This document shows positions 23,901 through 58,755 of a DNA stretch of 64,000 nt, one piece after another; position 1 is the stretch's first letter; every line of letters starts with the position of its first letter. The translations under genes were made by a program, and so were the position numbers. The stretch lies in contig CP154954.1 of assembly GCA_039621445.1 (NCBI GenBank), positions 7,451,425 to 7,515,424 on the forward strand, read 5' to 3'. Source of the stretch: Euglena gracilis (lineage: Eukaryota). The notes beneath the pieces are model-generated. The model was given only the letters and a program-made list of their open reading frames with translations. It made no database searches and was not told the origin of the DNA.

Positions 23901-26808
23901 GGAAGAAGGCGTGGACGGCCCTGCGTGGGAGCACCAGATGGAAGGCCAAAAGCTCACCACCCAACCTGTTTGTTTTTGACCGCCTGCCTGCCTTCTTCCC
24001 TTATTTCCAGCCAGCCATCCATCCATCCATCAAATCAGCCAGCCTTCCAGCCATCCATGATGCAAGCAGTCAAATTCTTTCATTCTCCAACCCATTTTTG
24101 ACGCATTTCCTTTTACCCCCCCTCAAAATATACCCAAAGGTATATATTTGGGCATCCAGAGTTGGGGGCCAGGGGATATAATAAACCCCCCCGAACAGAA
24201 GCGCGGGGCCGCTAGAAGCGCAGGGTTCAAAAAAAAAGCGCACCCCCGTCGCCGATGGCGGCGGTCCACTACAAGCGTCCCCCCATTTCAATGGAATTTC
24301 TAATGGAAATTAACAAAATTCGCGCAGGGAGGGTCCAAATAGAAGCGCAACTCTGGCCGCCGAAGGCGCCGGTCCGCTATAAGCGCACCTGAGCTTCTAT
24401 GCGGAAAAGGGAAATGAAAAGAGGCCATAATAAAAGAGGCCCTATCGGATAATTGGTAGGTTTCAACAGTACAAGAAATGCCCGTGCCACTCAGTCTTTT
24501 GCTGAAGGACCCTGGGGTCAACTGGCCAGCCATTTTTACTTCACACTGCAACGAAGCCAGTTGCTAGAACTCTCGGGGGTCCCCTGACTCAAAAAAAAAT
24601 TTCCTCCGCGCCAAGCTGGGAATGGGACTTGCAATGAATTTTATGCCTGATTCTGTTCGAAAACAAAAATCAAAAAAAAATCACAAGATGGGCATTTTTT
24701 TTTGCAGGTGCTGCGGTGAAAAAAAAATTTCCGGTGCCAAGCGCTTTACCGGTCGCTGGACCAAAAATTCCCTCTAGCCCAACTAGCAGAGCACTTTTGG
24801 GTCTACTGGGATTTCCACAAGACAAACCTGGACTAACTGCAGTCGAGCCCCCCCCCTTGGGATTTGGTAGATTTCAACAGTACAAGAAATGCCCGTCCCA
24901 CTCAGTCTTTTATTGAAGGATCCTGGGGTCCACTGACCAGCCATTTTACTAGACACTGGCAAGAAGCCACTTGCTAGACCTCCCGTGGTCTAGCAAGGGG
25001 CCTCTTTCCCCAACTCGAAATTGCCGAAGTGGGAAATGGGACTTGTAATGAATATCATGCCTGACTTTGGTCCCATGGTCCCATTCCAACCCACCTCACT
25101 GCAGCTTTGACTGCGGAAGACGTGGGGGTTCTGCGCGTTACACAACACCCGTGTTAAGCAATCCCGACCTCAATACTGGCCAGCCTCCCATTCATCGTTG
25201 CCACATCACAGCCACGTCGAGGTGGGGGCGGCATACTTGGAGGCAGCTCGGGGAACCGGCAGAGACCCGAAAAGCGGAACGGAATAAACGAGGAGGGCCT
25301 CCTGCATGCAGATTGGAACAAGGCCCCAGCCAGTCATCCACCAAACATCCAAAACAATTGTTGGGGAACAAAAAGAAGTTGGGTACGATACGACAATGGA
25401 AATGTGCCGGCGAAGGTCCTTAATTCGGAAACCAACACATGGCATACGAAAAAAACTACCACAGACAATAATGGTAAAATTACTGAAATTTCCCCACATT
25501 CGCGTTGCAACATGAGCTGTGGGGGGCCGGGGGCCTGGGCAGCACAAAGACGACCATCAACACGGCGTGCAGGCCGAAGAGGCTGGAAGCGTCGAGCCCG
25601 ACGCCCCCCTCGGCGTTGAACACCCACAGGAAGAATAGGGCGAGGAAGGGCACGAGCAGCAGGCGGGGCAGCGCCCGCCTCAGGCCAGCGTTGGTAGGGC
25701 GTCCAGGACCATCAGGATACACTGGAAATGTGGCCATATCAGATAAGTTTTTTTTTAAGGCCGGGCAGACCATTTTGGGGGGTCGAAAATTTTGATGCCT
25801 TTGCACCGAAAAAAAAGGCCAAAAAAGGCCAGAACCTTGTGGGAGACCCACAAGGCACTTGGAGGGAACCCCCCGGGGGAGGGGCTGTCCGGCGGACCCA
25901 CCGACCATGCCCTGTCCCCCAGGGTTCCAACCTTTGAAAAGTCCAGAAAATTTATGCATAACTAGGAAGGGAGGGAGGCGCTGGACATTAGACAATTGGG
26001 GAAAAAAAGTGGGGAATAAATCAACAATATCTCGTTAAAACATTCTGATGCCAATGACAAAAATGATAAAACAATGCCTGACAAAAGGACACAGGAGAAT
26101 ACTCTTTGAAAGAATTTGAAAACCATGGATCAGGACGGGGTGGCCCTTGGAGATGGGGATGGAGGTATTTACATTGAGTCTTACCGTATGTTAAAAAATC
26201 ATCAAACATACATAAGCTGGAACATGTTATTTGTGTTCAAATAAATAATACAAATAAGCACGAATATGTTAATTCCGAACACAAATAAACATGAATATAC
26301 CAATTTAAAACAACACACGCAATTATTTGCCTGCGGCATCTTTGGTGACTGGCACCGTACGTTGGTCTGGTCCACAATGCCCACCGCCACCAATGCCATG
26401 GGCGGGAGGTTGGGGATACTTCTGACTGGCCCTCTGTGGAGTCATAAAAGGGTTTCTGCAAAAATACAAGCAGAAGAGAATTAGCCTGTCAAAATGAAAA
26501 CGCACGGGGAACAAGGCATTCTACAGTTCTGAAAAATATTGCACTCCTTTCAAAACAGGAACGCTCCAGCACCATCGTGTTGCTGCATTATACCCTACAA
26601 CCAAAATTAATTTGAAATAATAATAAAAAAGTCAATACACTGAGACACTGACACAAACAAGAGTGAACACAGAAGGACAGGAGTGGAGCACACCTTCGGG
26701 CCACTTCCCCATCTCAGGTTGTGGCTCTTCCGGGTACACGTACACCTCGGGCGTCGGCGTGAAGTACTCCGCCTGCCCAACCTCTGGAGCCGGTGTGGCA
26801 AACTGCAT
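20999..26808 (-). CDS. Cytochrome b561 family, tandem copy 3 (5' half more diverged)
   Basis: Same exons. Exons 7-9 are near-identical to copies 1 and 2, while introns 2-6 are clearly diverged. ATG at 26808, TGA at 20999. Confidence 0.87.
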
Positions 26809-27535
26809 TCTCAACAACCCCTGCAAAGGGTTGGGGGGGGGAGGATATCACAATGGCACACGCGACGCAGGGGCACTGGAAACGTGCTCCTGCCAGGGAC
26901 GCGCCAAAATGTCATCAGGACAAGAAATTATCGGGGGATTCGGCAACCATTCCAAACAATCAGCGTATGGCATAATGTGCAAGGAGAAACCCAAGGGATT
27001 TCGATCCTGAGTGGGCGCGACACCCTTCCATTTTTTGCATTCCCCCAGGTTGGACCCAGGTCAGAGTAATTTTTTTTTTGAATTAATAACAAAACTTTGC
27101 TACCCAATGGAATTTTAAGCATAAGCCGATTTTGGTCAGCACAATTTTCAAGATGGGATTTGTGCCATGCTGAAAATCTGGCCAAACTCTGAAAACATGT
27201 CTCGCGACCGGGGGGGGGGGGGTCGTTGGACACGTGGGAGGTAAGGGGCAGTCAGAGCACCTTGATTGCACACAAAGAGATTTTGGGTGCACAGCACCGT
27301 GACAAGGGGGCCCAGATGAGCTCGCGGAGATGGTTGGTTTCGCTCAGGTGGCCAGCCCCCCTCCGCCGCCAGCCCGCAGGGCTGACGCCCCGGCGGCGAG
27401 CGAGGGGGGCCTCGCAACGCTTTCGACGACGCACTGAGCCGCGCAGTGCGGGGCCGGGGCCCGGAGGAGCCCCGGGACAAATGGGCGGAATAACTACAGC
27501 GGGAGGGGGAGGGTTGGGTTCAGGGATGGCGACGG

Positions 27536-30500
27536 TCACGGGGGAGAGGCGGGCGGTGGGTCATCGGTCAGGGCCACTCGGCCGCCGGCCGGTTGTCAAT
27601 ATCCATGGGAACAAGGCCAGTGCCATGCAGCCAGAAATGGAGTTCTTCAACGCTTGACCACTCTGGCAAATGACTGCCCAGGCACGAACCCCCTCCCACG
27701 CCGGGGACAATAAAACATGAATTGGGATTTAGGTTGATACGGTCAAAGGGTGAATAGTATACACAATTCATAGCTTTGGCAAGTCCCATGCCCACCCAAC
27801 CATCATCATAAACCCCCAAAAATATGTAATTGCTCCCGGCCAAACACTAAAAAAAAGTTTCCTGTGCTGTCTTGGCCACAATCAGATGACATCCAGCTTA
27901 TGAATCACACCCATCATCCAATGAAAGAAAAGGTCGCATCTTGTGCCTTCCACGTCCACCGTCCCTCAGCGGTCGGCGGCCAGCAGCCCAGTGGGTGAGC
28001 CGGCCCGCCTTGCTGACGAAAGCTTCCACTCCTCAGATCGCACGGTGGTGGTGAGGCAGAACTCCACGCCATGGCGTTCATCCAGCCTGCCCCTCAGCTG
28101 TGACTAGGGGAGCTGAGGGGCGGGGGCGGGGGGGGCGGGCGACGGAAAACCATCACTGAAGAGTTGGCTGTTGAGCTGAGACCCAACTCGACAGGAGTTT
28201 TGGTCCTGTCGAGTTGACATGGCTGACATCTGGGCTGGCCAGGGGCAGGGCACAAAAAAAACATCATTCATCAGCAACAACCGAAAACCCCCGACAGAAG
28301 GGGTCATATGCGCCCCCCAACCTACAACCCCCAACCAGGTGGTAATCGCACGACTGGGTGCCAAAAACAACCTAAATTTCAAAGCCACCTGCAACGGCCC
28401 TTACCCTGCACTCTCTGGCTGGGGAGTGGAGGAAAGGTGTCTCAGGGCACAAGCAGCTACGGCCGCCAACAACAGCCTCTGAGTCCCCACCTTTGCTTAC
28501 CATTTTGGGGTTTTTCTATACAATTTTTACAATTTTTACAAAATTTTCACAAATTGTGAACTAAAAAATGCAGAGTACAAACGCCAACAATGGAAACGCA
28601 CCTATTAACTGTGCATTGTTAATAGGTTCGCTTCGGGGACTGCAGAATGCAGACGAAGTCGCTACATCGACAGAAAAATTTTTCTCACAAGGTTTGGGTG
28701 GCCGTCATTTTTTGTGTTTTCCTGTGAGCCGAATTTGCGAAACACAAAGAGCGAAACACAAACATAAAAGGATACTGAAATACGATCCGAAAAGGCCGAA
28801 TACTCTGGCATAATAGTTCCACAATGCAGCCCCAAGGGGTAGCGTGCAAGCATGACAAACTGGCAGGTGCGCGACAATGGCAAGTAACGCCCTGCCCGGT
28901 GTCCCGGGTCACGGCGGCGTCGGACTGGCCGAAGGGCGTGGCGAACTGCTTGCGCAGCTGCTGCATCTCATCCACCGTGTGCTCCGCCTCGTACGCCGCC
29001 CGTGGCAGAGGGCGGCCCAGGTGGTCCCCTTGCCCCAGCGGCACTCCACCGGCACACACACAAACACACACACACACACACATCTGATACAATGCATATC
29101 AATTCAAGGTCAGAATAATTCCCCACAACACCTGGAAAAAATGAACTTGATATGGGTCCATTTGCCAAGAAAATTGTGAATACAAAACGATGGACCTTCA
29201 AGCATTGTTTGCCACAAAAGATTCCATGAAGCGGAAGCTGCAGCAATGCAAAATTTTCACATATGCAACCATGCCCCTGCTCCAAATGCCGACAAAACTC
29301 ATTTCATTGCAGTGCGTTGCGCCTGTCTGCCACCCCCTGGCCATGAGGTTCGCGCGCTGCAAGCAGGGGAATTCTTAAAGACTTTGCAGGGTCAGCCGGT
29401 ACATTGAGAGACTAAAAACTGCTGGCTGGAACCCCTCCAGAGGCTCCAGGGAAGACTGCCAGGCTCGTGGAACAAACATAAATCCCCCAGAAAATTGGGT
29501 CGGAAATTTAGGAATCTGCCGTGGCCCAAAGGGTGAGGCATTGCATCCCAAATTGAGGTTGGTTGATTGGGTGTCGGGTCAGCAGCTAGCCGAAGACCCC
29601 TTTCCTTAAAACTAGCTTGTTTGATTCTTTTGGCCCTGAAGACATAAAAGCCATCGTTTTGAAAGTGAAAATTAAAAGAATCCACAACAAAAAAAAACCT
29701 GTGATTTTAGCGGGGAGGTCATATTTGCCAGTGGACGACAAAAGAGTGGCCAACTGCCTGTGAGGTCAAACCGGACCGGTAATTGGCCACATTTTGGCAA
29801 AACACACAAAGCCATTTTCCATAAGTTTCTTTCATAAATTCATTCATCGCTTTGCAAGAAAATGGGGACACAGCCTCATTTCAACCCCCTGCAGCCCTTG
29901 GGAGCTGTTGGCTCGGGGAAAAGGTGCTAAATGGCTGGCCCCAGGGTCGGTACCGGCTGAGAAATCCCCTGGCCCGAGGTACCACCGCTTCTCCGCTTGG
30001 TCCTGCACTGCAGCGTACGTGTTGCCCATCATTGCGATGAGCAGGTTGTGAGCAGGCGGCTGTAACTGTTCCCTGGAAGGGGGGGGGGTTCGGAGTCAGG
30101 CTTCTTTTTAACCACGGGGGAAGGGGGGTGCCTTGTGCGACTGGGTGCCTGCCCATAGCAGTCCCCCCAGGGTGGGGGTTGGCCCCGGTGTCTGGTGACC
30201 CAGACAAAATGCCCTCGAAATGGCATTTTCGAGCTGGGGGGGGGGGGGGCAAAAATGCAACCAGGGATCCCCACACGTCCGTGCTGGCCGAGGCCAAAAT
30301 GTATCCGTGATTTTCCGTGAATTTCAGTGATTTTCCGTGAATTTCCGTGAATTTCCTGTTTCCGGAAAAGGTCAAAGGCCACATTCCATTCTGCACTGGA
30401 GCCATATTTGGGCGGTTGTGGCAGCAGATCGTTTCTCCATAATATAGTCCTGGAGATCCCCCAGTTCCTATTCACACCAGTATATGAAAAAAAAAAACGT

Positions 30501-33500
30501 ACAGGAGGGGAAAAAACAACCTTTTGTCCTTGAATTTTTTTGGATTGCCCCTAAATGGGTTGCCAAAACCCTGTCAGCAGACCGATATAGCGATTGACCC
30601 TTCCGCATGCAGCCTGGGCGGGAAGGTGGAAAATCATAAAAACCAGACGCCCTCAACTTGTGTGTATTTTTGGAGAACACCTCTGATGCTCTCGAGGTCC
30701 AATTTTGTGACCGGGAGACCAGAATGGAGGAAAACGGCCACAAAATCATCTGTGATTGTCTGGGTGAGGTTTCGCTTAATTCACCGACTCCCAAAAATCC
30801 AACTGCTTCAGTGGAGTGTCCTGGCTAGGAAGAAAAATTACAAAAAAATGAATTGGACGACATTGTCTGTTTGGAAAGGCAGAGAATAAGCAAAGCATCC
30901 CATTAAAATGTGTCTGCACAAACAAAACACATTCAAAAAAAGACCAAAATTTTTTTCCCGAACCCTCCTCCTCATCCGTGAATTTCCGTGATTTTCCGTG
31001 ATTTCCGTGAAAATGGCCTTCCGCCCATTTCCGTGATCCTCCGTGAATTTCCGTGAATTTCCTTTTCAGGACGTGTGAGGATCCCTGATGCAACCCACCC
31101 CAAAATTCGATCCTCCCGAACGAGCCTGCCCAAACCCCCACCCCCTAAAAAGAAGCCTGCTCAGAGTTCATGGGAATGCCCGAATAGCTTCCCAGAGTTT
31201 CTCAGTTTTTGGTTGCATCCAGTGCCTCCTTGAGTGTTTATCTGGGGGGAGGGGTTTGGTTCAACGTCACTTGAAATATGAGTGTAAAAAATGCAAAATA
31301 CAAAAATACATGCAATAAAAAAAGGAAAGAAACTGAAGAACGAGCAGTCTGCCTGGTTCAGCAGCAGGATTACCACCAGAATTATATACGGGAGCAGGTC
31401 CATGGTGGATTGGGATATGGGTCTATTGCCCACGGGTCGCTTCTGCTCCAGTGTTTGCCAGACTCTCACAGTCACAGCTTAAAAAAAAAACTCACGACAA
31501 GGCATGGAGATGACGTCATGAGAAATCAGATGGTAGCAATGGACAAAAAACCACAGCCAGCCTGCAACTTGCACACCCATGTGACCTGGGCAGCGTGAAC
31601 AGCAGCTCGATGAGCAGCATGCGACCCCCGGTGAAACGCTCGTTGTACTCCTTGAACGGGAAATCGCCCACCAGCCCCAGCAGCACCAACTGCCGTCAGC
31701 AGAGGGTAGAGAGAGCCTACCGGAAAAAAAAATGGAATCAGATTGGACCGTGCACCCTTTGGGGCCCTGTGGGTAAGCCTGAAAGAGTGGAGCAGAATAC
31801 TTGAAATCTCGCTGGAGCATAAAACCCTTTGGTCAACCAAAACACCTGCCAGTCGAATAAAAGAGGGATATAATATAATAATATAATAATACAATAATAT
31901 AATAATATAATAATATAATAATACAATAATAAAATAATATAATTATATATTTCTGTTGTGTGTGTGAGAGAGAGAGAGAGAAATGGTAAACTACTATATG
32001 TTCATTCATAAATATTAATTCGTCCTCGCTTGCCCTGATAGTGCAGCCTAGGCGACTGGGGGGGGGGGGTGAATGGTTGGTGTGCTTTGGGAAAAAAAAG
32101 TGGTTGCCCCATCCCACACCCTGGACACAAGCGCTCCGCAAAGGCGTCGAAGCCGCAGTGCTCCGCGCTGGAGGTCAGCATGTGGAGCGACATGGTGAAG
32201 CCGAACAGCACGGCGAGGTTGACGGAGAGGAAGCGCCGGAGGTCGCCGCCTGGACCTGGGTGCCCACCCCCACGGCCCTGCCCTGCCGGTGTACTGGCCG
32301 ACCTGTTTGAGTCAAAACCGTTGGAATGTCGGGGCCCAATCACGAAACTGTCAGGGGCATTGGCAACGGCCACCTTGTCACGGGGAAGTTGTCAGGGTCC
32401 CTGGTATCCTCCCTAATCGGTCGTTATACGGGGGATCGCTTCCAAGCTGATCACTGTGGATGTCCTTCCACACCCGGGCCAGCCCGTACTGCACCATCTC
32501 CTTGATCATGATGACGAAGGGTCCCGTGGACCGGAAGCCGAGCAGTGACAGGGAAACTGCGGCTTTGAAAAGAAATACGAAGGCGAGCACCGCCATTCCA
32601 CAACTGCACGGCCTGGAAGGGCGGACCACCACCTGCTCATCACAGATCCACACCCCTGCGTAAACGAAGACCGACACAAACAAACACTGACATCAACCCA
32701 TCGCAGCACAGCCTCGTACATCGTCACCTAAAAATCGATCAAAAAATGGCGAAGCGCTCTGCACAGGAAGAAGAACACATGCAGCCAGCCAGTCAGAGCG
32801 GCAAAGGCGGCAGTGACATCAACCAGCATTGGCTCTTCCGCGAACCGCGCGCAGCAAGACCTGTGCAGGTGATAGTCCCTGCTTGCCCTTACACCTCCGA
32901 TTTGGACAGTGCTATATATTTTGTCTGCAGGAGAAGAATAAAAACATGTTTTGCCATCACCATTGAATTGCATTCAATTGATTGAAGAAAATACAAATAA
33001 AAAAACAGAAAAAGAAAACTGAAAATTTTAACAGAAAAGAAAATAAAGGGGGGAAATCATTGAGAAAGAATGAGAGGGGAAATGGGAAATTACCAAATCG
33101 ACACCCAGTGCCTTCAGAGGGACTAAAAAACAGTCATTTCTTCAATTGCAAGAGCTTCTCCCTCAATGCGAACTTCTCCCTCCTCCCTGTTACTACAGAA
33201 CCCGATGGTCGCGCTGGGCGGAAAGCCAGGGAGGCCAGGTACAGGCTGCGGAACACATTGCCCAGCGCCGCCTCCACCGACGCAGCGCCGTGGGTCTCCC
33301 GAGCAGGGAGGCGTCAGGGGGGGGGAGGGTTGCTGGGCACCCACGGGACACCCTCTGCCTGAGGGCTGAACAATTAGGCAAGGGGGGGGAGGTTCTCTGA
33401 ATGCCCACGATGCACTTCTCGTTCTCCAGCTGTGACAAATGGCCAACTCTGCCCTGGTTTTAAAGGTTGCGATGCAATACTCGGAATCTGCACCCGCACG

Positions 33501-36500
33501 ATTCGCTGAGGTGCATCGGGCCGTTGGGGCCGTTTTTTTTGACAAGGGATCGTTGGATAGCCGCTGGGAGGCTGCAGGGTGGAGAGGAAAGGGGAATTGA
33601 ACGATGAGTCCTGGCCCGAATTGGCTATTTCCGCGCCGTGACCACACTCGTGAAGGCCCGTACGTCAGCACGGGCTTATGTGCTTGTAGAAATGATAATT
33701 CCAGCTGAACAATTAATAACCAAATCCACAAAGGGTAAAAACAAAAATCATAGGTGCTCCGGAAAGCGACCCATCAACAACGGGATGGGGAGAGGCCAGA
33801 AGTCTCCCTCGGCGACACGCAGTCTGGATGGGCGACAGCTCCAGGCGAACCAGCCTGCCCGCCACATGACAGGCAGCAGGGCAAGCAGCTCCAGCATGCG
33901 GATGACGAGGTTGGCAAGCGGGTGGGCCTAGACCAGAGCTGCGAGGGGGGGGGGGGACTCTCAACTGAAGAGGAATAAACACACTGTGCACCATCAAAAA
34001 GGAAAACCAACAAAAACAGAAAAATACACCAATTTTTTTTCAAAAGTTTTCAACTCATCTCTCTGTGGCTACCGCTCCAGCCTGAATGGTCCTCTGGGCT
34101 GTGACCGGCGCAGCGATAATGGTTGGCGCGCAGGGTAATCCGTGACAAACAGCTACTTCTGTGACTGAGTCCACCAGCAGTCATATGAAGAAGTGATTCG
34201 GGCTGAGGAGTAATCCAAAATCTGACGTGATTCAGGATCGCTTTGCCAGCCATTCCAGATCGCAACTTTAACAAAAAAACATTACATTTATGCACACAGG
34301 GCCTTCCAAAGGAAGCCTCCTCTGGCCGAGACAGCAAACCAAAGAGGTTGCTACGCCAGCGAGATCAACATTGGCAGTTTTTTTGTTTGTAAACAAGACA
34401 CCCAAGAAATTTCGGAGTGGGTTTGCTCAGTGTACTTTCATTGACAAACAGCGTCGGAGGTCCCCTGGACGGGCACGATGCTGGCGGCGGTCCAGGCCAG
34501 CACAGTGCCGAGGGCCACCGCCAGCTTCCGGTAGAACATCCGCTGCCCGAACGCGTCCCACTTCTTGTCCAGCACCTGCCGCACCTCCGCACTGACCACG
34601 AGGTCCAGCCGCGGCGCGTGGCCCCGGAGTTGGTTTAGGGCTGGCTAAAGATGCCGGCTCAGACGTGGACACAGGTCTACTTTGGGATGCTCCTTCCGGC
34701 GCTGACTGGTGCAAAGCTTTTGTCTGCAGGTGACACAGACCGAAGGTAAACAAACAAACTCTGATGTAAGGTTTAAAAAAAACTTTGTAAACCACCATGT
34801 GCCAAAAAAAAAAACAGTCAAACTCCAGTAAACCCCCCAAATGATAACCAGGTTTTGAATAATGCTGAGCTCTTAATGAGATTTGAACGTAATGGAAGGC
34901 CGAAGAGACTAGCATTGCAAATTTTGCACAATTTATAATTTACAAATGACACACTTGCAAATTTACGGTGACTTTCAGAGATTTCAGTTTGACTTTTTTG
35001 ACCTGTTTTTGACCGAAAGTCCATGGGTTTCGGGCCAAAAACGGGGCGCTGGCGTGTCAGAAAACGCTCATTTTCGGATCAAAAACAGGTCTTCCGGGTC
35101 CGGGAGGCCAAAAAAACATCAGGTTTTTTAAACTTTTTTTTACCAAAGATGCCCCCCAAAAAAATTGCCACGCCAAAACGAGCCAAAACTGTACAAAATG
35201 GCCAAAATTGATTTTAGACTGAGCTCTTATCCCTTTATGGGTACCCCTGGGGAAAAGGGGGGCAGACCCCCCCCCCCCCGCCCTCCCCGAACCCCGCGGG
35301 GTTCGGGCAACCTCGGGAACCGGCGGATTACCATGATCCCGCCGGGTTCCCGGAATTTTTTTTTTTCGCGAGCTACTGGATTTCTAATTTCCGAATCACC
35401 CAGACCCAAATAGAAGCCCTTAAAGTGCCCTACCCAACAGTACCTCGATTTCTCCACATAATTGTGGCTGATTTGACCATTTTGTACAATTTTGGCCTAT
35501 TTTGAAGAGCATTTTAGGCCATTTTTGGGTAAAAAAAAAAGTCGAAAAAAAAATCGAAAAAATGTTTTTGCCCGAAGCGATGATTTTCTTGCCTCCCAGA
35601 CCCGGAAAACCTGTTTTCGAGCCAAAAATGAGCGTTTTTCGACACCCCCCGCCCCCTGTTTCTGGCCCGAAACCCATGGAGTTTGGGTCATTACTGGTTC
35701 AAAACAGTCAGAAAATCCAAGAAAATGGGTATGGGGAACATGGGGGGGGGGGTAACATTTCAGAAATAACTATAAAATCACTGAAAGTTACCGTAAACTG
35801 CAGGTGTGCAATTTATAAATCATAAATTACACGAAATTTGCAATCTTTTCGGCTTTCCATTACGTGTCCATCAAGATCTCAGCACTATTCAAAAACTGAT
35901 TTTCGGGTCGATTTTTGACTTCGAAAACTTTGCCCAAATAATAACCCACCAAATAATAAACCTCCCCCTGGACCACGATTTCGAGTGTTTAAATAATAAA
36001 CTGGGGTTTACCTATATTATTTTTTTGCATTATGCCGACATTTTTTGTGTCAAAAAATGCTAAAAATGTGAGCAAAAAAAGACTTACGCGTGCCAACCGG
36101 AACCACTTTACTTGCTCCACGTGACGGGGGATGCGGCTGTCTGCGAGTTTGAGGCACTGTGTAACAGGGCCAGGCAGGGGGGGGATGGGCATCCATCTGT
36201 GGGTAAAATACAATCCGGCCGGCAACACCCAAATCAGGATGTCGAAAAAAAAAATCAAAAACAAAATATGTATAGAAATGTATTGAATTATAAACACATA
36301 CATGCGGGTATGTGTGTGTGTATGTGTTCGTGTGGGTGGGTGGGTGGTGTGTGTTTGTGCGTGGTCATGTGTCAGGCTTCCTTTTAAGAACGGGGGGGTG
36401 CCCGAGGTTTCGATATAAAGGCAGATGGGGGGTCCACAAGGACCCCCCTCCCTATGGTCTGGGACCCCACCTGAACAATGGCACGGTCCGGGCGACCGAT

Positions 36501-39500
36501 TTTCACACTCAAAATGGCCAAAAAAGTGCCACTTTGTCACTCTTTGGACAACAATTTTTCAAAATTGCAAAATTTTTTTCGATGGTAAGCACCGAAAATT
36601 TTGGCCTTTCAGGGGGGGGTAACCCCCCCGGGGTTGGTCTGGACCCACCCTGGCACGCGCCCACTCAGGCCCAGGGGGGGGGGGGGTGGAGGACAATCCC
36701 GACATAAACCCCGTACGCCCTCCTTATACCTGAGCCTGGGGTACCCCCACCCCTGGGGGGGGGGGGGAGGCGGTCAGGGGCCCACTTTGGGGTTTCAATT
36801 ACCCTCCTGGGGGGGGGGGGACCCACCTACTCCCCTTAAAAGTTAAAATCAGGCAGTACTGTTGTCAATATTTGAATACTTTGTTCGCAATTCCACCATT
36901 GACATCTAAATAATAATTGTTTGCCATTCCTTTGTTGTCATTCATTTGAAAAATTGAACCTTATATTTAAAATATCGCATTCTGTGTTTGTTTTTTCAAG
37001 CCTTACCAACTGTTGTTTAAATCATCAACACATAACAAACATTATTCCAGTTTTTGGTTACCGGTACCTTTGTGGTGTGTTCATGGTCAGGACCAAAGTC
37101 AATGAAAGAAATCTAAAAAAAATTGTTCCCCAAGCCTGAGTGGGATTTTGGGCCCCTGAACATAGACAAGCAATGGCAGTCTTCACGGCTACTCCCGTCT
37201 TCGTGTCAATGAACGGCTGCTCAAGGCCTCCAAGGGGAAATAGCTTGCAGGTGATGGGGTCAGCCTGGGATGTCGTGGTTTAGGTCCAGCACCTTCTTTC
37301 CAGGACCCAGTGCTTCCAAAGGTCCATTTGAGGGAGGGGCAATTATGGGAGGGGGTCCAAGGTTAGGCGTAAAATCCTTACCTGGCGGGAAATTGGCAAA
37401 GAGTTTTTGTAACCCAAAGAATGTTGTTTTTGCATCTGTTGCTAGAACATCAAACATTTTCACTGTGTTTCCGAATGGGCTTTTGGGACAATAATCAGCG
37501 ATTTCTCCCACATCATCCTGGTGCTTCGCTCATTTAGTTGATGTCTTAAATGAGGGGTTGATTCTGGACTTTTATTTGGTCAGCCCAGGACGTCTTCCTT
37601 TCGTGGCGGAGGTCTACTTGGTTCATGGTCCATGTCTGAATGTCCCTTCGACTTAAACGTACCTCCTGAAAAATCATGTCTTCAAATATTTTTTTCCAAA
37701 AAATACAGCTTTTTCATGTGTTGAAATTGGCATTGCAAGAGAGATACTGTTTTGCAATGGAGAGAAAACGCCTTTTGGGATGGTTCCAGCAAGAAACTCG
37801 GGCAGATCTCCTGACACAAACAACATAAAAACTCCCCATGTTCCCCCCATCGGTCGACTTTTGCTGCTTGACAAATGAAAAGCACACGGGGGTGGACAAG
37901 AGCAGTGCCAATCATCCAGGCAGTAGGTGCACTGCGTGGGGGGTTGTGAAAGCAAATTTTTCACAGAGCGTCAAAAATTCTCATTGGTTTTTGTCTTTCA
38001 CAGACCAGAGGATCGATTTGAGTGGATACCTCCTCAGGCGAGTGTTTAAAGCGTCCAAAGCTGTACAGGGCCATAATCCCATGCAACGACGGAGGACTTC
38101 GCCAGGATGTGCTCCGGTCAGCCACCGGAAGGCAGATGTTGATGAACCGCATGCTTTTCAACGCTGTTCGCCAAGCTACCTACCCCCCCCCCAGGTCGAC
38201 TGTCACCTCACAGGGTCGGCAGGCACAGGGGACGCTGACAACTTCCAATCATGACAGGTTGGCCGTCCTCAGCAGCTGTCTCTGTATTTCTTGCAAGGCT
38301 GTTCCTGTGATTTTGGTGCTGTTCCTCTCGGCATCACAAACGTCTGGTTGGCTGTTGAACCAAGTGGGGCAGTCATACCCCCCCCCCCCCGGGAAACTGT
38401 CACCTGACAGGTTGGCCAGTACCGAGGACCCTGACAACTTCCTATACTGACAGGTTGGCCAGTACCAGGGACCCTGACAGTTTCCCGGGCGGGACCCTGA
38501 GAGTTTCCCGGGTAGGGCATTTCAAGGGAAAGTCAATGAAAAATGACCCTGGCAGGTTGGCCGGTACCGGGGACCCTGACAACTTCCTATACTGACAGGT
38601 TGGCCGGTACCGGGGACACTGACAGTTTCCCGGGCGGGACCGTGATCAGGCACCTATGGTCACTTCCCATTTTGGTGCACTGGTCGGCCCTAGTCGGCCC
38701 TGGTCGGCCCTGGTCGGCCCTGGTCGGCAAATAGTCGGCCATAGGTGGGGGTATCCTTCACAGAAAAAATGTGAAGGGATGCAATGATTTCCTGAATTGT
38801 CTTGCCAAGATCAAGAGGAAGTGCCCCATAAGGCCTCCACTGGCTCCCCAAAAGCAACCAAAATGACCTAAAATGGCTTGAAATAACCAAAAATTACCCA
38901 AAAAACGCCAACAAAATCCACAAAAGATTGTGAAAAATGACCCAAAATTACCAAAAGGGCGCAAAATGGCCACAATGCCATAAAAAATGCTCAGATTGAC
39001 CCAAATTAGCCCAATATTTGCCAAATCAGTGACAAATAGCCCCCAAATTAGCAAAAACTGGTCCATAATGGCCAAAATGGGTGAAAAACTGGAGATTTGT
39101 GAGAAAATTATCCAAAAACTGGGTTTAGTCCCCCAGGCAACCATCAGGCACATCCACACAAAATCCTCGTTGCTCACACTTTGCATCGGCCACACTACAA
39201 AAGAGCATGCAGCAGACAGGGAAGCACAGAGTCAGTCACGGTGAGGTGAAGGTTAATGTCAGGGTCAAGGTGACAGCACTGTCAATGACAGCGTCACTGG
39301 GCCTCTGCCCTCTCGAGCTTGTCCAAAAAACACCCCTGGCACACTGCCACGCGGGTAGGGGGGGGGGGGCAGGGCATCCATCGGCTGCAGCTGTTTGCTG
39401 TACACAAGGCGGCTTGCGACTCGTGCAGGAATCAGGCACACAAATACAATAGGGGCACTGGAAGGGTACTGCGCAGCTTCCTCCACACTTCCCGGGGGTC

Positions 39501-42500
39501 CCGCTTCTTGGCCTCCAGCCAACCTTCCTCGACATCCAACTCGCGACTTTGTGTATTAAATTCGCGGCTCGTTGGATGCCAATCCTGGCATCCAACAATC
39601 AGGGGTGCACAGTATGCACACCCCTGCAAGCATCCTCGGATTCACATGCCCCACAAACATCCATGGATGCACATGATCATGCACATGCGTACAACCGCGA
39701 CCACAGTCGCCCGTTTATCCCACAACTTAAGTTTCCCCCCATAACCTCCCTCTCCCACTGGAGCATCCACTCCAGGGAGTCACTCAGGAAAGGCCAGACG
39801 AGCCAGGGAGGAACACAGCACCAATGTGGAGGCTGTACACAGGTATGCAGCAGGGGCACGATACCTTCGGCTCCAGGGGAGTCACACACCTCCCGGAGGG
39901 GGACGGAGACAGACAGAGGGAAAGCTGCCGAATTCCTTCATCCATTCCCTTCGGTCGGCCAACCACACGCAAGTCGGCCCTGGTCGGCCCTGGTCGGCCC
40001 TGGTCGGCCGTAGGTGCCTGACCGTGACAGGTTCTCGGGCATGACAGTTTCCCGGGGGGGGGGGTAGGTATGAGGGGGTTGGCTGAACCGATGCGGCGGT
40101 GGTTGTCGTCGGGGGGGGGGGGGGAGGCAGACGACCTCCACCGGCTGGGCGGAACATGCGGTCCTGCCCCATGGCGGCGGCGAGGGCGAGGGGGGTCAGC
40201 CCCTCCGCGTTGAAGAGCCGCCGGACGTCCACTGCGGAGAGCCCCTGGCGGGCCCAGGCTGGTGCTGCTTCGCCTCCGTTCCAGAAGGCGGCCCCCTGAG
40301 GGCCGAAAGCCCCTGAACAAAAAACTGGGGTAAGTATTGCACAGCCAAACTGCGTGCCGCTGCGTGTGCCCACACATGTGACGTGCACAACTTTGCAGTT
40401 GAGTGACGCGTGCAACCAAGTTGGCGAGAACAACTCAAGATGATTCGTACATATTTCTTGTTGTGGGTTGAGACGGAGAAACAAGAGACGAGATGGGTGT
40501 GATTGCATCAGACGCACAGCGATTGGGACCACAAGGGGCCCAGAGAACGACTGAAGGTGGAAGTTAATCATAACACATCAAACAACGCCCTAAACATATG
40601 CCTGGATGGTTCAACGTGTGCCTTACCATGGAGGTAAAGCATTCAACATACTACCGCGCGTGTTGGGGTCCCAAAACGGAAAAGAAAGCAGCAGGGAAGT
40701 GATAAACCTTGGGACCTGAAGACCCAAAAACGACCAAGAAAAATGACGAAGTCGACGAAGAAAAGAAAAAACATAGAACACCTTTCAACCCTTCTCAGCT
40801 GGGTAATAATGCTGTTGGCAAAGACAACCTGAACGGTACATTTCCTCCAGTACGAAGTCGGGGGTAACCGCCCCACCTGACTCCCAAAGATCGAGCCATT
40901 GGATGCTGAGAAGCAGAGCATCCCCCCACATCTCGGGGGAGCGACAGCATCAGTCCCTCCAACAGCTGACGGATCGACATATTCGGTGAAAAATATGAAA
41001 CGTCCAGGGCCCAAATGGCGTCTCCTTTCGGGTGCATTGAAAACGACGCTTGAGTAGTTTCTTGGTTAGGGCTGTGCAAAGCTTCACCACAAAACTCTGG
41101 CCTCTAGACATCCAAAGAAGAACAATGCATGAAGACAGGGGCAGGGGAGGCGGCTGGGTGTAGATGTCCGGCAGCTCAGCCGCAGGGACAGCACCCAAGC
41201 AGCAAATGAGAAAAGTCAGTGTTTGCGTGGGTGGGTGGGGCAGCGTGTGAATCGGGAGGTCACGATCCCAGCAGTTGATTTTGCAGTGGGTTTGGTGGGT
41301 CACACGTGGTCACACGTGGTCACACGTGGTCCACGGGTTCACAATGGGCCTGCATAACAATTTTTTGCCTGAAATAGTTTCCGGTGCCAAAACCGGGGGG
41401 GGGTCGGTAAAAAAACAAACCCCCCGAAAAGGTTTTCGGTTCATGATTGAGTGACTGTATGGTTGTGGCCCACACCAGACAAACAAAGAGAGCCCCTGGC
41501 CGTGGATAACTGCGAGGTGGAGGGCGGTGTTGCCAAAGCGGTCCACAGTGGTGATCGATCGTCAGAGGGAGGATGGGCCCGCCACCAAAAATTCACCAAC
41601 ACCAACAACCTGCTGCCCCTTGTTGAATCTTGCATCCCGCCGAGGTTGCTTCCATGCCGTTGTTGTTGTTTTTTCAAGCAATAAAAAAATGGTAATGACC
41701 TCTTAAAAATCATTCCAGAAAATTGTTTGAAAACCTAGCAAAAATGAAGTCGCTGAATCTCGGCCAAAACTGGAAAACTGCAGGAAAAAATAATTTGGAA
41801 TGGAATCGCTGGAACAATGTCAATGCATCCAATTTCGGGGGAAAAAATCTAATTTTCCACTTTTTGGTTTTGAGCCAAGTCCCATGTAGGGATGGCACTT
41901 GAACCGCCCTTGGAAAGAAATGCCTCAAAAATCTGGAGCACTGGCCCAGAAGAGAATTCAATGAAAAGGTGGGTGCTTTCTGACACAGAACAGCACAGAG
42001 GAGTTTCTGCTGTGGTTTATCTGTCACCCTGGTTTCATTCTTGACGTGGTGTTGTTTGAGGCGGCGCGTCGTGCGCCGGGTGGCAAGGATGCACCGCAAG
42101 ATGTCCACCTGGTTGCTGGCGGCTGCGAAGAGGAGCGGGTACCGGGAGTCAGGGAGTGTGCTTCTTGGCCTCTTTCTTCTCTCCACAGAAAGCCTGAGTT
42201 CAATCCAAAATTCCACCATTGAACCTGGTACAGGCTTGGGTCGGACACCAGTTTGCCCATCATGCAGAGAGTCGATACTGGAACACTGAGTTGCAAAACA
42301 GACTGTTCTCTTGGGACCAACCCTGGCGTATGGCAAGGAGGACAGCACAAAGGGTGGCAACTGCCCACCCGTAGATGAAGGTCTCCAAGCTTCACAATGG
42401 GTACCCCACCTGCTGGGTACCCCACTCTACCCCGCATATTTTGAACCTTGTCGTGGCTGTCGCTGTCGTTGTATACGGTGTGTAGTGTGGGGTCTGTGCA

Positions 42501-45500
42501 ATGTGGTAATGTTCGGCTTCATTATTTCAGCAGCATTTTGAAACCAAACAACAGCATTTTGAAAACAAACCCCATGTATTCAAAAAACCTCATCAATTTC
42601 TGAGCATCTCCTTTGCTTGTGGCCATATGACCGGCTTCACCATTTGTTGGTGATAGAAAAGCGTCTCGTCCCTGCTGGCTGCAGCTGGCCACAAACCAAG
42701 GAAGACTAATACAACAAAGAAAAACACCCAGGGGATCAATATGTGTCTCGGAATATATGGGGGGATGGCCCCTTGTGATTGTTGAAGATATCCCCATTGC
42801 AAAGAGTATATGTCCGATGGCTGTTTTGCCAATCACATTAACAAGCAGCCACAAATTTCTCACTTTGGACGGCCTCCCGGTAGATTTTGCCCCACTTACA
42901 AATGAAGTCTTTTGCAGCGACAACTTCCTCATTTGTGAAACATCAACGGATGAGCAAACCATTCTACATACAGCACGGTGAAAAGTGTGCCCAGAGGTCA
43001 CTCCCTGGCTCCCCAAAGTACACGTCCCCACTTGGGGCGAAGAACGAGCCGGTGGTCTCCGCATTAAGCAGCTCCGGGTCACACGCATGTTATTGCCGAA
43101 GGGTCCAGGTCATTCTCCATTTTCACTTCCAAAAGCAAAAAAAAAATCTCCCAGAATTCAGGTTCGTTTTCTGTCCGATTTCATTCACTCCATTCTCGCC
43201 AGAGTGGGGTATGCTAGTTATATGCCATCGGTTCCTGGGTCAATTCTAAAGCAAACACGCACCAAATATCATCGAACGGGAGAAAAGGGGCGACTTTCGG
43301 CAATGATATGGCCGCGATTCAGCAGCCAGCGCACCAGCTCCACGTCCTGGTGGATAATGGCAATGTGCAGGATGTTCTCCCCGCTGTATTCCCCCTCCCC
43401 GTACACCGACGTCAATTCCAGGGCGACAATCCGGGAGGGAGGTGTCGCACGCACACGCACATTCAACCCATGCACCGGGGTTTCAATTCTCGGGGGGCGG
43501 GGTTACTGTGGCCAAAGGGCAAAAGCGGGTAATGCTTCTATTTGGGGAACTATTCCGGGCACAGATGCTTGAAGACCTCTTGTTACAGACTCTCTTATCG
43601 CAAAACAAACGAGGTTGCTTTTTTGGACCTGGGAAACAACTTCCTGAACCCCCCTCCACCAAGACACCAACTTTGGGGGGGGGACATCTCTGTCTTCAAC
43701 AGCCATACAAGAGCAGAGAGCAATGCTGACTGGCAATTTCCTGGAGGACCCAGCCCGCTGAGCATGACAATTTCTCCTGGGTGGGGGGCGAACCAGGTGG
43801 AAATCACTTCAATTGGCTGCTGCATTTCGCAGACTTCCAGAGCAGAGGGTGTCAAGACGGACGGGTGGATGGCGAGTGGCTGGAACCGGAATGCAGCCCT
43901 GGGTGCCAGTTGGGGGTACTCCTCAACCAGCATCTTGCCGATCTCCGTCTGCCGGTACAGGAAGGCGATGTGGATCGGGTTGGCCCCCACCGCGTCCCAG
44001 GCAGGCCGCACGCCCAACACGCACTGCAAAATTCAGGGGGGGAAATCGTTTCGGGTGGCAAATGGAGCGCACCGCATGGCCCTCGCCGCCTGGGCGGGGC
44101 GGGTCAGCACGGAGGGGTCCTGCTGCGCCAGCCGCCGCACGGCGTCCCGGCGGCCCTCCTTGATGGCCCAGTAGATGCCCTCGCTGGCAGGCAGCTGCGC
44201 GCTGGGGGACCATCCAGCCCAAACCCGGATTTTGCCGGTAAGACCCCGGGGAGCTTGGGACTTTATCGGTCACTGGACACACCCACTGGCTGGACTCCCC
44301 TCTCCCAGGGGTGGGGGGGGGGGGGGGGCCAGGTTTTCCCCAACCGGGGGAAAAGGGGGGTGGAACCGGAGACTTGGACATATTTTCTCGTCGATTTTGT
44401 CCAAAAAATACAGGTTCTGGGGTCAAAAAATTTCCGGCCACTGGTGGGGACCCATTTTTGGGGGTGATAATTTTGGGGTCGAAAAAGTTTCGGCACTTCA
44501 CCGCGAAAAAAAAAAGGGCCAAAAATGGCCAAAACCAGGCCTCCGGCGGGACAAAGACCTTGAAGCTACCCCCTTGAGGGAGAAGGGGGTCCGGCAGAAC
44601 CACCCACCCTGCACCCTGGGGGTGCAACCTTGAAAAAATTCCTAGCTGGCACCCGAATTTATGACAATCAAGTCGGCTGAAATTTGAGGGTTAATGCTGC
44701 GCTGTAGGGTCAGGAGACTTTTACTGCAATGACCAAGGTGTAATATAAAGCAAGGAAGCCTAGACAACAACGTTGATTTTTCGCGGACAGCGAAAAAGCT
44801 CAGACGTTACCAACTTTGTCCATTCCCACATTTGTGGGTCATTGGAGCAGAACGTTCATTGAATAGAGTTTAGAACGTGGCACGACATATCCAAAATACA
44901 TTTACTGAACGCAACCACAGACACCCCCCTTTTTAAAGCTCATCTTCTCTGGGAGGCTGATTTTGCATGTGTTAAGAGAAATTTTCAGAGAAATTTCTCA
45001 AAAATTCGGTATTTTAGAAACTTCTGAAAGTCTGATTTGGTGAAATATTGTTGGTTTTTTCCAAATGCTTGCGAGTTCAACAGTTGACTTCTGAAAATAA
45101 GGGGAACCTTTTACTTTCTGCACGAAGTGCCGTGTCACTTTTGCAATCAAAATTTCCCTCCTCTCTGAACCCTAAGAGAGGTGACGATTACTTCGCTTTG
45201 ACTAATACACGGAAAAACACACACAAAAAAAAACAGGAAGCAAGAAAAGACATCATGCAAAGCAGAAAGATACATTCTGACAAATGGATTTACTGTTCAT
45301 TTGGAGAATATTGACTTACCCTTACACTTACCCTTATCTTGGCCTGCGGCCCAGAGGGGGGTGGAGGGGTTGCTTTCTAATCCAAAACGCACACACACAA
45401 ACACACAACCACAACCATTAACCTTTTTGAAATGAAAGAGACATCAACTTCTCCCAAAGAAAGAAGAAACTGGCATTCTGGTGGGGTAAAAACATTCACT

Positions 45501-46923
45501 TTTCGCATGTGGTCGGCAGTGGTGAAATTATCGGCAAAAGCTTGAGATGCCACAGAAGGGCATATTACTGGACGACACCATGTGACGCTTCATCCCAAAT
45601 GCAAACCCGCGTATGCTGTGCATGGAAAATTCTTCGCAATAAATTCACTAATCGCCAAAAGTTATTCACGTTAGCCTTGAACTCGAACCGGGCGGCAGTG
45701 GTCTGGGTCTGGTGCATTCGCTGCTGGTCACTCTGGGAGCGGATCCCCTGGCGTGTTGGGAGCTGCAGAAAAGAGTGGGCCCATTCCATTGCTTATCGAC
45801 CGCCTGGGGAATGGGCTCACTACAGCCACTACCCCCCAAAAAACTCAGAATCTGCTGTTTTGAGTGCTCCCGGATATTTCTTAACGCTATTCCAAAACAA
45901 AAGCTATTCCAAAAACAACCCACTTTTTGCCATATCTGCCAGACGAATGAGATTGGGGACAGAGTGAGGAGGCCAAAACACCCACACCCTCCGAAAAGAA
46001 CCCGTGTCTCTGCGCTGAGGAAATGCCCCACTAAGCATCTGGTGTGAATGGGACCGTCGGCGTAGAGTGGACAGGAACGGGCAGAGACATCCACCACCGA
46101 AGCACGCGACTTCTCCATAAGGCTCACTTTCACAAAAAAAACTGCGAATTGTGTGTTTGTCCTTGAAATCACACACCCACGAAGTGGGTGGATTGGCAAA
46201 AGAAACGACCATATCCGCCAAATTGTTCAAGGCACCATGAAAATGACACACAACACACGGTTGGAAACATGCCCTAACTTACCGGCCCCCCCATGGTCAC
46301 TTTCCAACCATCACTTTCCACCCTCCCCCCAGAGGGTCAGTCAATCTTTCCACTTGGCCGAAAATAGGCAAAAATCAAAGGGTTTTGTCCAAAGATCCAA
46401 AATAAATTATCTGCATGGTTGGCAACTTCCAACCCCCGGGGGGGGGGGGGGTCTGGAGCCCAAAAAAAAACAACAACAACCAGGAACTCTGAAAAATAAT
46501 CAATCACCCCTGACGGGAGGGTGTTCCCATCCCTTATGTGTTTCATTTCCGCTTTTCGGCTTTTTTGTCGTTTTTATCAATTTTGGCTGGCAAAACGGCT
46601 TTTTCGCTGTTTTGCCAACGGCGAAATGGCTTATTTGCCGTTTGCCAACAGCGAAACAACTTTTTTGCCGTTTTGCTGACGGCTAAACGGCTTTTTCGCC
46701 GTTTTGCCGAAAAGCCGTTTTGAAACAAAAGGGCTTCTGATGGGTGGGAACAGGGGGTCGGCCACGTTATGCCATGATTATGATGCCACCTTAAGAATGG
46801 CATCATCGAAATCACTCCGGAATTGAAATACGTATCAAACCAACCTCTTGTCTGACCATCAGGGGGCGGGGGCCGAACCACGCTCGCTGCCAGCGATCAG
46901 TTGTGCTGTCGAACAAACGGTGG
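27536..46923 (-). CDS. TRPV-like ankyrin-repeat transient receptor potential cation channel, paralog 1
   Basis: Exons placed by hand include 46845-46923, 45649-45762, 44096-44194, 43905-43996, 43314-43413, 43011-43080, ~42036-42143, 41502-~41545, 41160-41177, 40835-40859, 40151-~40280, 38067-38113, 37162-37255, 34471-~34640, 33814-33927, 33220-33298, 32765-32846, 32486-32543, 32127-32244, 31592-31694, 31359-31389, 29975-30047, 29343-29358, 28898-29000 and ~28010-28064. Motifs: ankyrin repeats (GANPIHIAF, YSGENILHIAI, YFGxYPLLFAA, DRFGNTALHLAV, NAEGLTPLALAA), WDYGPITCKLFPL, VRQVLDKKWDAFG, GPFVIMIKEMVQYDLRRF, pore LLGLVGDFPF, S6/TRP box LLLNLLIAMMGNTYAAVQDQAEKRWYLERA. Start, stop (27536 or 27914) and a possible exon near 36.1 kb are uncertain. 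Confidence 0.88.
30097..31159. mobile_element. Non-autonomous hAT-like TIR element (~1.06 kb)
   Basis: Perfect 14-bp TIR CAGGCTTCTTTTTA / TAAAAAGAAGCCTG. Flanks TTCGGAGT and CTCAGAGT match at 6/8 (degenerate 8-bp TSD). Subterminal GAATTTCCGT tandem repeats near both ends. Confidence 0.7.
31868..31945. repeat. AT-rich (ATAATATA-type) minisatellite
   Basis: Directly visible tandem ATAATA(T/C)A units. Confidence 0.9.
34850..35895. mobile_element. Foldback element with long imperfect inverted arms (~350-400 bp)
   Basis: 35021-35108 is the reverse complement of ~35591-35679. 34852-34980 mirrors ~35775-35893. Confidence 0.7.
38378..40064. mobile_element. TA-flanked TIR element (Tc1/mariner-type MITE-like) carrying a nested insertion
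   Basis: TA-C(n)GGGAAACTGTCA ... TGACAGTTTCCC-G(n)-TA. Internal repeats GACAGGTTGGCC(A/G)GTACC. Confidence 0.65.
38647..40020. mobile_element. Nested hAT-like element (1374 bp)
   Basis: TIR CAGGCACCTATGG / CCGTAGGTGCCTG. 8-bp TSD ACCGTGAT / ACCGTGAC. Subterminal GGTCGGCCCT decamer arrays at both ends. Confidence 0.8.
43414..43904 (-). other. Nonconventional intron in the TRPV-like gene (representative)
   Basis: ACC-CAGGGCTGCATTCCGG ... CCGGATTGTCGCCCTG-GAATT, a 16-nt stem with two mismatches and one G-U. In-frame YPQL-A-TSVYG. Confidence 0.85.
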
Positions 46924-58383: not shown

Positions 58384-58755
58384 TGGCTCCCTATTGGGCT
58401 GTGGGAAGCACATTGCCTGCCAAATTGGACCACCCAGGCTGTTGGGGCGAAATTGTCGGCGAATGTCGGTGGAAATTGTGTTTTCCGGCACACAAGAAAA
58501 CACACTCAAGTATGCACACACACGCGTGCGCGCGCACACACACGCACACACACGCACACACAAACACACACACACACGCGCGCGCGCACACACACGCACG
58601 CTCGCGCGCAAGCAGACACGCCACATGAACACCAAGACAAGCAGGCGCGCAGGTAATACACCCCCACCCACCCACCCACCCACAAAACCTACATAACATG
58701 CCTCATATGGCCCAAAATAAGCAATTGTAGCCAAAATAACATACTAGGGGAGAGC

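Follow-up and report, generated by a model that had tools for sequence, protein, structure and literature searches.

Two TRPV-like genes in tandem

The window analysed here is a stretch of 64,000 nucleotides of Euglena gracilis DNA (GenBank assembly GCA_039621445.1, contig CP154954.1, positions 7,451,425 to 7,515,424 of the forward strand), which is free of N and has a G+C content of 45-56%. It holds two tandem copies of a TRPV-like gene on the minus strand, P1 and, upstream of it, P2. The 3' parts of these paralogs have two intron positions in common and differ by four nonconventional introns. All positions are those of the window.

With the 40-residue exon of P2 as the query, 10 of 24 candidate proteins were related at E <= 1e-3. 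The best three, at 98% identity, were the EukProt Euglena gracilis transcripts EG_transcript_44968, _25325 and _820 (P0001-P0003), which together with one JGI protein make up the four cDNA-derived proteins used for comparison (P0001-P0004). None of these transcripts is identical to P1 or P2; thus the TRPV-like family has at least five members. Searches for the products of the two genes themselves gave zero candidates for P2 (P2 exon against proteins of 22-70 aa) and one candidate that was not significant for P1 (terminal open reading frame (ORF) against proteins of 24-79 aa). With P0001-P0004 as tblastn queries, P1 was resolved into small exons, over 20 in number, between about 44180 and 27966, the 3' ones being 31389-31359, 30047-29975, 29358-29343, 29000-28898 and 28064-27966. 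The 3' part of P2 was mapped to 63545-60632, with exons 63545-63426, 61334-61208 and 60697-60632.

P0003 (1152 aa), whose alignments with the P1 exons range over 50-94%, contains ankyrin repeats and an ion-transport domain (Pfam Ank_2, E 9e-16; Ion_trans, E 2.5e-4, with a score of 20.8 that lies under the Pfam cut-off of 25). From the ankyrin to the pore region it matches the solved chains of TRPV6, Inactive and Nanchung at E 1e-34 to 1e-39, and it also matches TRPV5/1/3/4 chains (best E overall 1.7e-39). Because of these domains and matches the label TRPV seems a fair one for both genes, which would encode ankyrin repeats and a six-helix pore domain. Thus P0003 resembles TRPV channels such as TRPV5/6 and insect Nanchung/Inactive in its ankyrin domains, its Ion_trans domain and its sequence. 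It differs from them in an N-terminal extension of about 520 residues and in the low Ion_trans score.

A 417-codon ORF lies at 57255-58505 (minus strand), and one part of it, 57977-57681, is similar to P0003 residues 169-257 (34% identity, E 2e-7). This ORF may be the first coding exon of P1, in which case P1 would span about 30 kb and lie directly downstream of P2.

Filled and empty intron sites at the 3' ends of P1 and P2

Nonconventional introns of euglenids follow a splicing code that was defined by knock-in tests as 5'-N3CDG...CH'GN5-6|R, with pairing beyond both trinucleotides (Nomura et al. 2025, PMC12501133). In the features listed below, a vertical bar marks an exon border and a hyphen separates the code trinucleotide from its spacer. 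The RNA data cited there are two contig runs (X1, X2) and two raw RNA-seq runs (X21, X24) with the same species label, mapped on 27500-47499. Their RNA nature is a guess, none being on record as RNA; 19 such runs share 8-23% of the words of the window.

The 3' end of P1 is composed as follows:
31390-31591, minus strand: phase-2 intron at L|YII, a position common to both genes; GCC-CAG...CTG-CTCCC|G fits the code, and splicing gives ..FT-L-YIIL as in P0001
31359-31389, minus strand: exon of 31 nt (..YIILVVILLL), from the ORF and tblastn to P0001-P0004
30048-31358, minus strand: intron 1, P1-only (LLL|NLL), 1311 nt; AAC-CAG...CTG-CTCAC|A, with AAC at both borders; P2 is continuous at 63514-63517
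29975-30047, minus strand: exon of 73 nt (NLLIAMMGNTY..RWYL + G), from tblastx and tblastn; the RNA joint has its right side here, at 29975
29359-29974, minus strand: intron 2, P1-only (WYL|ERA), 616 nt; GGC-CAG...CTG-CTTGC|A; the ends pair, and it is removed in RNA contigs
29343-29358, minus strand: micro-exon of 16 nt ((E)RANL(M)), equal to the 16 letters inside the RNA joint 29000->29975
29001-29342, minus strand: phase-2 intron at NLM|AAY, likewise common to both genes; GGC-CAG...CTG-CCACG|G, duplex -31.8 kcal/mol; removed in RNA contigs
28898-29000, minus strand: exon of 103 nt (AAYEAEH..TRDT), from blastn, tblastx, tblastn and RNA
28065-28897, minus strand: intron 3, P1-only (DT|EFC), 833 nt; GGG-CAG...ATG-GCGTG|G, with a fitting 5' side and the 3' trinucleotide ATG, not CTG
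27966-28064, minus strand: terminal coding exon and stop codon (EFCLTTTVRSEEWK...), from the ORF and tblastn

The corresponding part of P2 has the following features:
63426-63545, minus strand: exon of 120 nt, continuous over the sites of introns 1 and 2, from translation and tblastn
61335-63425, minus strand: intron at the shared position NLM|AAY, 2091 nt, repeat-rich; GCC-CAG...CTG-CCCCG|G
61208-61334, minus strand: exon of 127 nt, continuous over the site of intron 3 (..PDTEFCLTTTL), from translation and tblastn
60698-61207, minus strand: P2-only intron (TTTL|RSEEWK), 510 nt, absent from P1; CCG-CAG...CTG-TCCCCG|C, which slides by 1 nt; duplex -19.3 kcal/mol
60851-61089, no strand assigned: MITE (a transposable element of the miniature inverted-repeat type) of about 230 bp inside the P2-only intron, with inverted ends of about 20 bp and copies elsewhere in the window
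60632-60697, minus strand: terminal coding exon and stop codon, from tblastn

The original prediction held that introns 1-3 interrupt sequence in P1 that is contiguous in P2, and this was confirmed. By blastn, P1 28897-29015 matched P2 61231-61349 (89.1% of 119) and P1 29972-30056 matched P2 63439-63524 (89.5% of 86); by tblastx, P1 30047-29976 and P2 63514-63443 had 23/24 residues in common. The minus-strand translation of P2 reads ...YIILVVILLLNLLIAMMGNTY...WYLERANLM within a single ORF and ...AAY...DTEFCLTTTL within another. The four junctions LLL|NLL, WYL|ERA, NLM|AAY and DT|EFC are contiguous in all four cDNA-derived proteins. Joining the P1 exons at the originally given coordinates yields a frame that stays open and runs parallel to P2 for 82 codons, 73/82 residues and 219/246 nt being identical. 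Each P1 interval meets a stop codon when read from its upstream exon. The two P2 segments that had been named as the uninterrupted counterparts (63426-63545 and 61209-61334) agree with our mapping within 1 nt; the second was placed at 61208-61334, its end sliding by one G.

The claim that L|YII and NLM|AAY are shared positions also proved right. They are in identical phase: in both genes the break falls behind the second base of a codon, that of the Met in NLM and that of the Leu which precedes YII. Between P1 and P2 the interiors of these shared introns show no similarity except in the last 15 nt. The shared exons have a nonsynonymous divergence (dN) of 0.056 and a synonymous divergence (dS) of 0.362, and for this reason both copies look constrained. 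Because of the dS of 0.36 and of shared introns that are alike only in their last 15 nt, the duplication is not a very recent one. Paralogy at these exons, the lack of which had been named as a reason to drop the prediction, is thus borne out by 89% exon identity and shared phases.

The predicted pairs of filled and empty sites rise from three to four, since P2 has an intron of its own at 60698-61207. The last 21 residues of P0001 are identical to 60697-60635 at 20/21 positions, which places this intron between TTTL and RSEEWK. Hence the last 110 or so codons hold six intron positions (two common, three P1-only and one P2-only), with four filled/empty pairs within about 330 nt of coding sequence.

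An in-frame SGEWK in the P2-only intron was considered as a relic copy of the terminal exon, which would have pointed to gain through duplication, and rejected, since its alignment score of 15 was met by 1380/2000 shuffles. A search for relic copies by local alignment of the exon ends with introns 1-3 was negative, 45 to 327 of 500 shuffles scoring as well. The MITE of the P2-only intron is one of four copies in the window that are 80-95% identical (24186-24400, 49566-49776, 55878-56072 and 60851-61089); the inverted ends of about 20 bp begin with a run of C followed by TAATAGAAGCACGGG.

RNA evidence for the P1 introns

Many of the upstream junctions of P1 were confirmed, in all or most of the runs. 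At the 3' end, the joint 29000->29975 was present in both contig runs (depth 125 in X1 and 150 in X2) with 16 letters inserted that equal 29343-29358. This shows that intron 2 and the shared intron 29001-29342 are removed while the 16-nt micro-exon is kept. The letters are those of P1; those of P2 differ at three bases. In intron 3 the bin 28167-28833 had 0 raw reads (X21, X24) and a contig depth of 2.4/0.5, with 26/13 and 48/39 in the flanking bins. Introns 2 and 3 are covered only by low-depth contigs (depth 2.8-7.4), and the depth over intron 1 is dominated by repeats and thus uninformative on splicing. As to the predicted boundaries, RNA therefore matches the junctions of the WYL|ERA intron, and we infer the exact borders of LLL|NLL and DT|EFC from colinearity with the cDNA-derived proteins, from the code and from RNA depth.

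Micro-exons in RNA joints of P1 measure 16 nt (29343-29358), 16 nt (interval 40860-41501) and 13 nt (interval 33298-33824). P1 appears to have several exons of less than 20 nt that are bounded by nonconventional introns.

The A of the window at 34591 is replaced by G in nearly all RNA reads, and the exon at 34453-34611 has 2 differences from P0003 in 47 residues. This indicates that reads of another family member map there and that the depth over conserved exons is not specific to P1.

Splicing code and pairing of intron ends

The borders of the paralog-specific introns are not of the GT/GC-AG type (AA..AC, GG..GC and GG..TG for introns 1-3, CC..CG for the P2-only intron), and GT-AG ends were found in none of the introns tested. 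The 5' N3-CDG is present in all four of them (AAC-CAG, GGC-CAG, GGG-CAG and CCG-CAG). At the 3' side introns 1 and 2 (CTG + 5) and the P2-only intron (CTG + 6) fit CH'G plus five to six bases, whereas ATG-GCGTG in intron 3 does not. The next exon starts with a purine after introns 1-3 (A, A and G); for the P2-only intron there is a 6-nt spacer with C at the exon start, or G after a one-base slide. A full fit was found for introns 1 and 2, for the NLM|AAY intron in P1 as well as in P2, and for the L|YII intron of P1. The coordinates originally given for introns 1-3 coincide exactly with the registers that agree with the published code, intron 3 being one base off at the 3' trinucleotide.

For comparison the code was tested on 10 of the 15 RNA joints listed for P1 (left aside were two joints with extra letters, the one with the 16-letter micro-exon, one in a high-depth repeat and one opposite-strand joint at poly-G/C). 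Eight of these ten upstream introns had the full code, one had CAG but CTA, and one did not fit.

Pairing was assessed by forming a duplex between the 22 nt at either end of an intron or element and comparing it with 2000 random pairs. End pairing beats 96-100% of random pairs for 7/8 intron or element ends. The energies are -18.1 kcal/mol for intron 2 (2.2% of random pairs as good), -16.0 kcal/mol for intron 3 (3.9%) and -19.3 kcal/mol for the P2-only intron (1.1%). In the minimum free energy fold of intron 2 both ends pair, and its overall stability is ordinary (z -0.87). Rfam gave no match in the window.

Taken together, these introns resemble the nonconventional introns of euglenids as described in PMC12501133 and PMC3935182 in their non-GT-AG borders, CAG at +4..+6 and mostly CTG at -8..-6, the purine at the exon start, ends that pair in most of them, direct repeats at the borders, widely varying lengths and occurrence in large numbers per gene. 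They depart from these in the ATG of intron 3, in the 6-nt spacer and C of the P2-only intron (unless slid by one base) and in the weak outer helix of intron 1. Intron 1 moreover holds two further inverted-repeat layers that comply with the code.

Origin of the paralog-specific introns

We favour the interpretation that these are nonconventional introns and that the four paralog-specific ones were inserted after the duplication. To this interpretation as a whole we assign a probability of about 0.6. Insertion would be the most likely source because a sequence that bears the code would be spliced wherever it lands. In the nonconventional pathway, pairing of the intron ends would then bring the junctions together, and the intron would be excised as a circle, as published work indicates. 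Natural and synthetic introns were indeed spliced out of a foreign site (Nomura et al. 2025, PMC12501133).

That gain is more probable here than loss follows mainly from published precedent. Milanowski et al. (2014, PMC3935182) counted 15 cases in which tubulin genes of phototrophic euglenids had gained nonconventional introns, and Milanowski et al. (2016, PMC4770533) described a gapC intron that is strain-specific and has 8-nt direct repeats. The latter, gapC intron 4 of Euglena agilis ACOI 323, resembles the present case in that one gene copy is filled and close relatives are empty and in its direct repeats at the junctions, and it was read as a recent gain. It differs in that the comparison is between strains and the repeats have 8 nt, whereas here tandem paralogs with a dS of 0.36 differ at four sites within about 330 nt and the repeats have 2-3 nt. 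In the window itself, the pattern of presence and absence is interleaved and reciprocal between P1 and P2, and the introns receive insertions (a MITE with target duplication in intron 1, a MITE in the P2-only intron). The first three intron bases equal the first three of the next exon at 7/9 positions in the P1-only introns versus 9/24 in eight upstream introns; over 14 introns this border repeat amounts to 21/42 versus 25% by chance (binomial P 4.5e-4). The suggested rapid change after duplication finds support as to the intron type and the paralogy; that it was rapid is not established, given the dS of 0.36 and the diverged interiors of the shared introns.

Several observations weigh against this interpretation. 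The 3-base repeat is also found at 3/3 positions in the shared NLM|AAY intron of P1; it is in part a known junction consensus and a weak signal of age. Over the four paralog-specific introns the flank bases match at 16/32 (hand count). Intron 3 carries ATG where the code demands CTG, and pairing is weak between the outer ends of intron 1 (-11.9 kcal/mol, reached by 15.6% of random pairs). The RNA joints among those listed cover intron 2, not introns 1 and 3. We infer expression of P2 as well, the RNA mapping having spanned the P1 region 27500-47499 only. The own protein of P1 or P2 was not found in the protein collection searched, and a metagenome scan gave no euglenid ortholog (80 of 115 relatives kept; best 37% identity over 139 residues).

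Because no outgroup gene structure came from that scan, loss has to be weighed as well. The ancestor would then have had all six introns, of which P2 lost three precisely and P1 one, through recombination with reverse-transcribed mRNA or deletion between border repeats. Being neighbours, introns 1 and 2 could have gone from P2 together in a single cDNA-mediated conversion tract, and the short border repeats (AAC/AAC, GGC/AGC and GGG/GAG) could mediate exact deletion. A dS of 0.36 allows time for several such events, which, with the interiors of the shared introns diverged, need not be recent. Yet the interleaved pattern (kept, lost, lost, kept, lost, plus one reciprocal) needs at least three exact events in two genes, the ancestor would carry consecutive exons of 16, 24 and 31 nt, and the counts published for euglenids favour gains of nonconventional introns (PMC3935182). 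We therefore consider loss a distinctly less probable explanation, though one of some weight.

It is improbable that the intron models are wrong for some of these intervals, i. e. that intron 3 has another 3' site or is retained, or that the 3' end of P1 is decaying. An alternative in-frame 3' site does lie 12 nt upstream and would add four residues, single changes in CTG abolished splicing of the published test intron (PMC12501133), introns 1 and 3 are without a joint among the RNA joints listed, and low-depth unspliced contigs span the 28064/28065 border (depth 4.35). However, the 28167-28833 bin without raw reads has covered flanks on both sides, and a border at 28065 gives back precisely the ..DT-EFCLTTT of the four cDNA-derived proteins. 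In the drawn register 8/9 bases pair in the helix CAGGGCGTT/AACGCCATG, as compared with 3 in the alternative, whose exon would begin with C, a base disfavoured in the published tests. Moreover, the code is present in 61.2% of E. agilis nonconventional introns, and the other 38.8% are off the strict code anyway (PMC12501133). An artefact of assembly or homology, with loci that are allelic, chimeric or non-homologous at these exons, is very unlikely. Nothing in its favour was seen; both loci lie on one contiguous N-free stretch in the same orientation and have the exon identity and the intron positions and phases described above, and P2 retains introns of its own and hence is not a cDNA contaminant.

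Nested elements and a possible transposon origin

Within the outer ends of intron 1 two further layers were found:
30097-31159, no strand assigned: intron 1 layer 2, inverted repeat of 14/14 bp with CAGGCTTCTTTTTA arms; 8-bp flanks match at 6/8, duplex -25.0 kcal/mol
30262-31087, no strand assigned: intron 1 layer 3, MITE-like, 826 bp; terminal inverted repeat of 19 bp (18/19) and a 7-bp direct repeat ATGCAAC on both flanks

On the minus strand layer 2 reads GAG-CAG...CTG-ACTCC|G and fits the code, and both inner layers satisfy it on the transcribed strand. The pattern of layer 3 has 2 occurrences in the window versus 0.06 expected. The RNA contig depth of 343-699 over 30168-30834, as against about 30-90 in neighbouring bins, suggests that the element 30262-31087 has many copies.

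hAT elements make 8-bp target duplications and have ends of the type YARNG. A tentative interpretation, which we regard as doubtful at present, is that the introns of this locus arose as hAT-like MITE insertions with CAG...CTG ends, the 3 + 5 spacers of the code corresponding to the 8-bp target duplication. Were this so, the cut in the RNA would remove the element plus one copy of the duplication and thereby restore the message as it was before insertion; the window would show intermediate states, and intron 1 would be a three-layer stack of insertions. Four intron-resident CAG...CTG elements have flank repeats of 7-8 bp (30262-31087, 30097-31159, 38647-40020 and 48298-48478), and 3/4 fit the code on the transcribed strand. 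Flanks that match at 6/8 or more were found in 3/43 CAG...CTG inverted repeats versus 39/3370 inverted repeats with other ends, which is suggestive, not strong; besides these cases with 8-base flanks there is one further element with a 7-bp duplication. Introns 1-3 themselves have inverted ends, an 8-base flank identity of 3-4 of 8 and no other copies in the window.

A literature search on Euglena introns and hAT target-site duplications found no paper linking the two. Related searches and the passages of PMC12621601 consulted gave only the general MITE idea for Euglena introns. The introners of Micromonas, Aureococcus, Amoebophrya and Polarella (PMC11282704) are alike in having inverted ends, repeats resembling target-site duplications, new sites and removal at the RNA level. 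They differ in that removal is spliceosomal and that they form recognisable multi-copy families, whereas Euglena introns 2 and 3 have no further copy within the 64-kb window.

At 38647-40020 a CAG...CTG inverted-repeat element lies inside an RNA-verified intron of P1 (8-bp flanks 7/8), in a region of very high RNA contig depth (1800-8800). Two others, 48298-48478 and 62480-63159, share the end sequence CAGGGCAGAACGGGA and thus form one family. The second of these, with its CAGGGCAGAACGGGA ends, lies together with internal repeats in the P2 intron 61335-63425.

Relation to earlier work

Nonconventional introns make up 71.8% of the introns of E. agilis. Introns specific to a lineage, species or strain, border repeats resembling target-site duplications and the MITE hypothesis are already in print. 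The locus is thus an ordinary one for Euglena, in which paralog-specific introns are expected from earlier work. New are the P2-only intron 60698-61207, the nested structure of intron 1 and the density of the example between tandem paralogs.

Its relevance is that of a well-defined test bed. Both the origin of the nonconventional introns of Euglena and the machinery that removes them are still described as unclear by Nomura et al. (2025, PMC12501133). The four filled/empty sites in tandem paralogs represent matched target sites before and after. The locus further offers a 16-nt exon between two nonconventional introns, one intron that breaks the code by a single base and one that consists of nested code-compliant layers, and these introns are suited to the published knock-in assay.

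Further observations

Hundreds of raw reads end in runs of C or G at 35267-35288 and 44308-44330, and an "opposite strands" joint links these sites; it probably reflects G/C-rich repeat copies or a library artefact and not a transcript feature of P1. Downstream of P1, the region 1-27100 consists of a unit of about 10.2-10.8 kb that is repeated head-to-tail about 2.5 times (e. g. 883 -> 11077 -> 21843). Translated pieces of the units are 75-100% identical, and the repeat ends about 900 nt downstream of the P1 stop codon.

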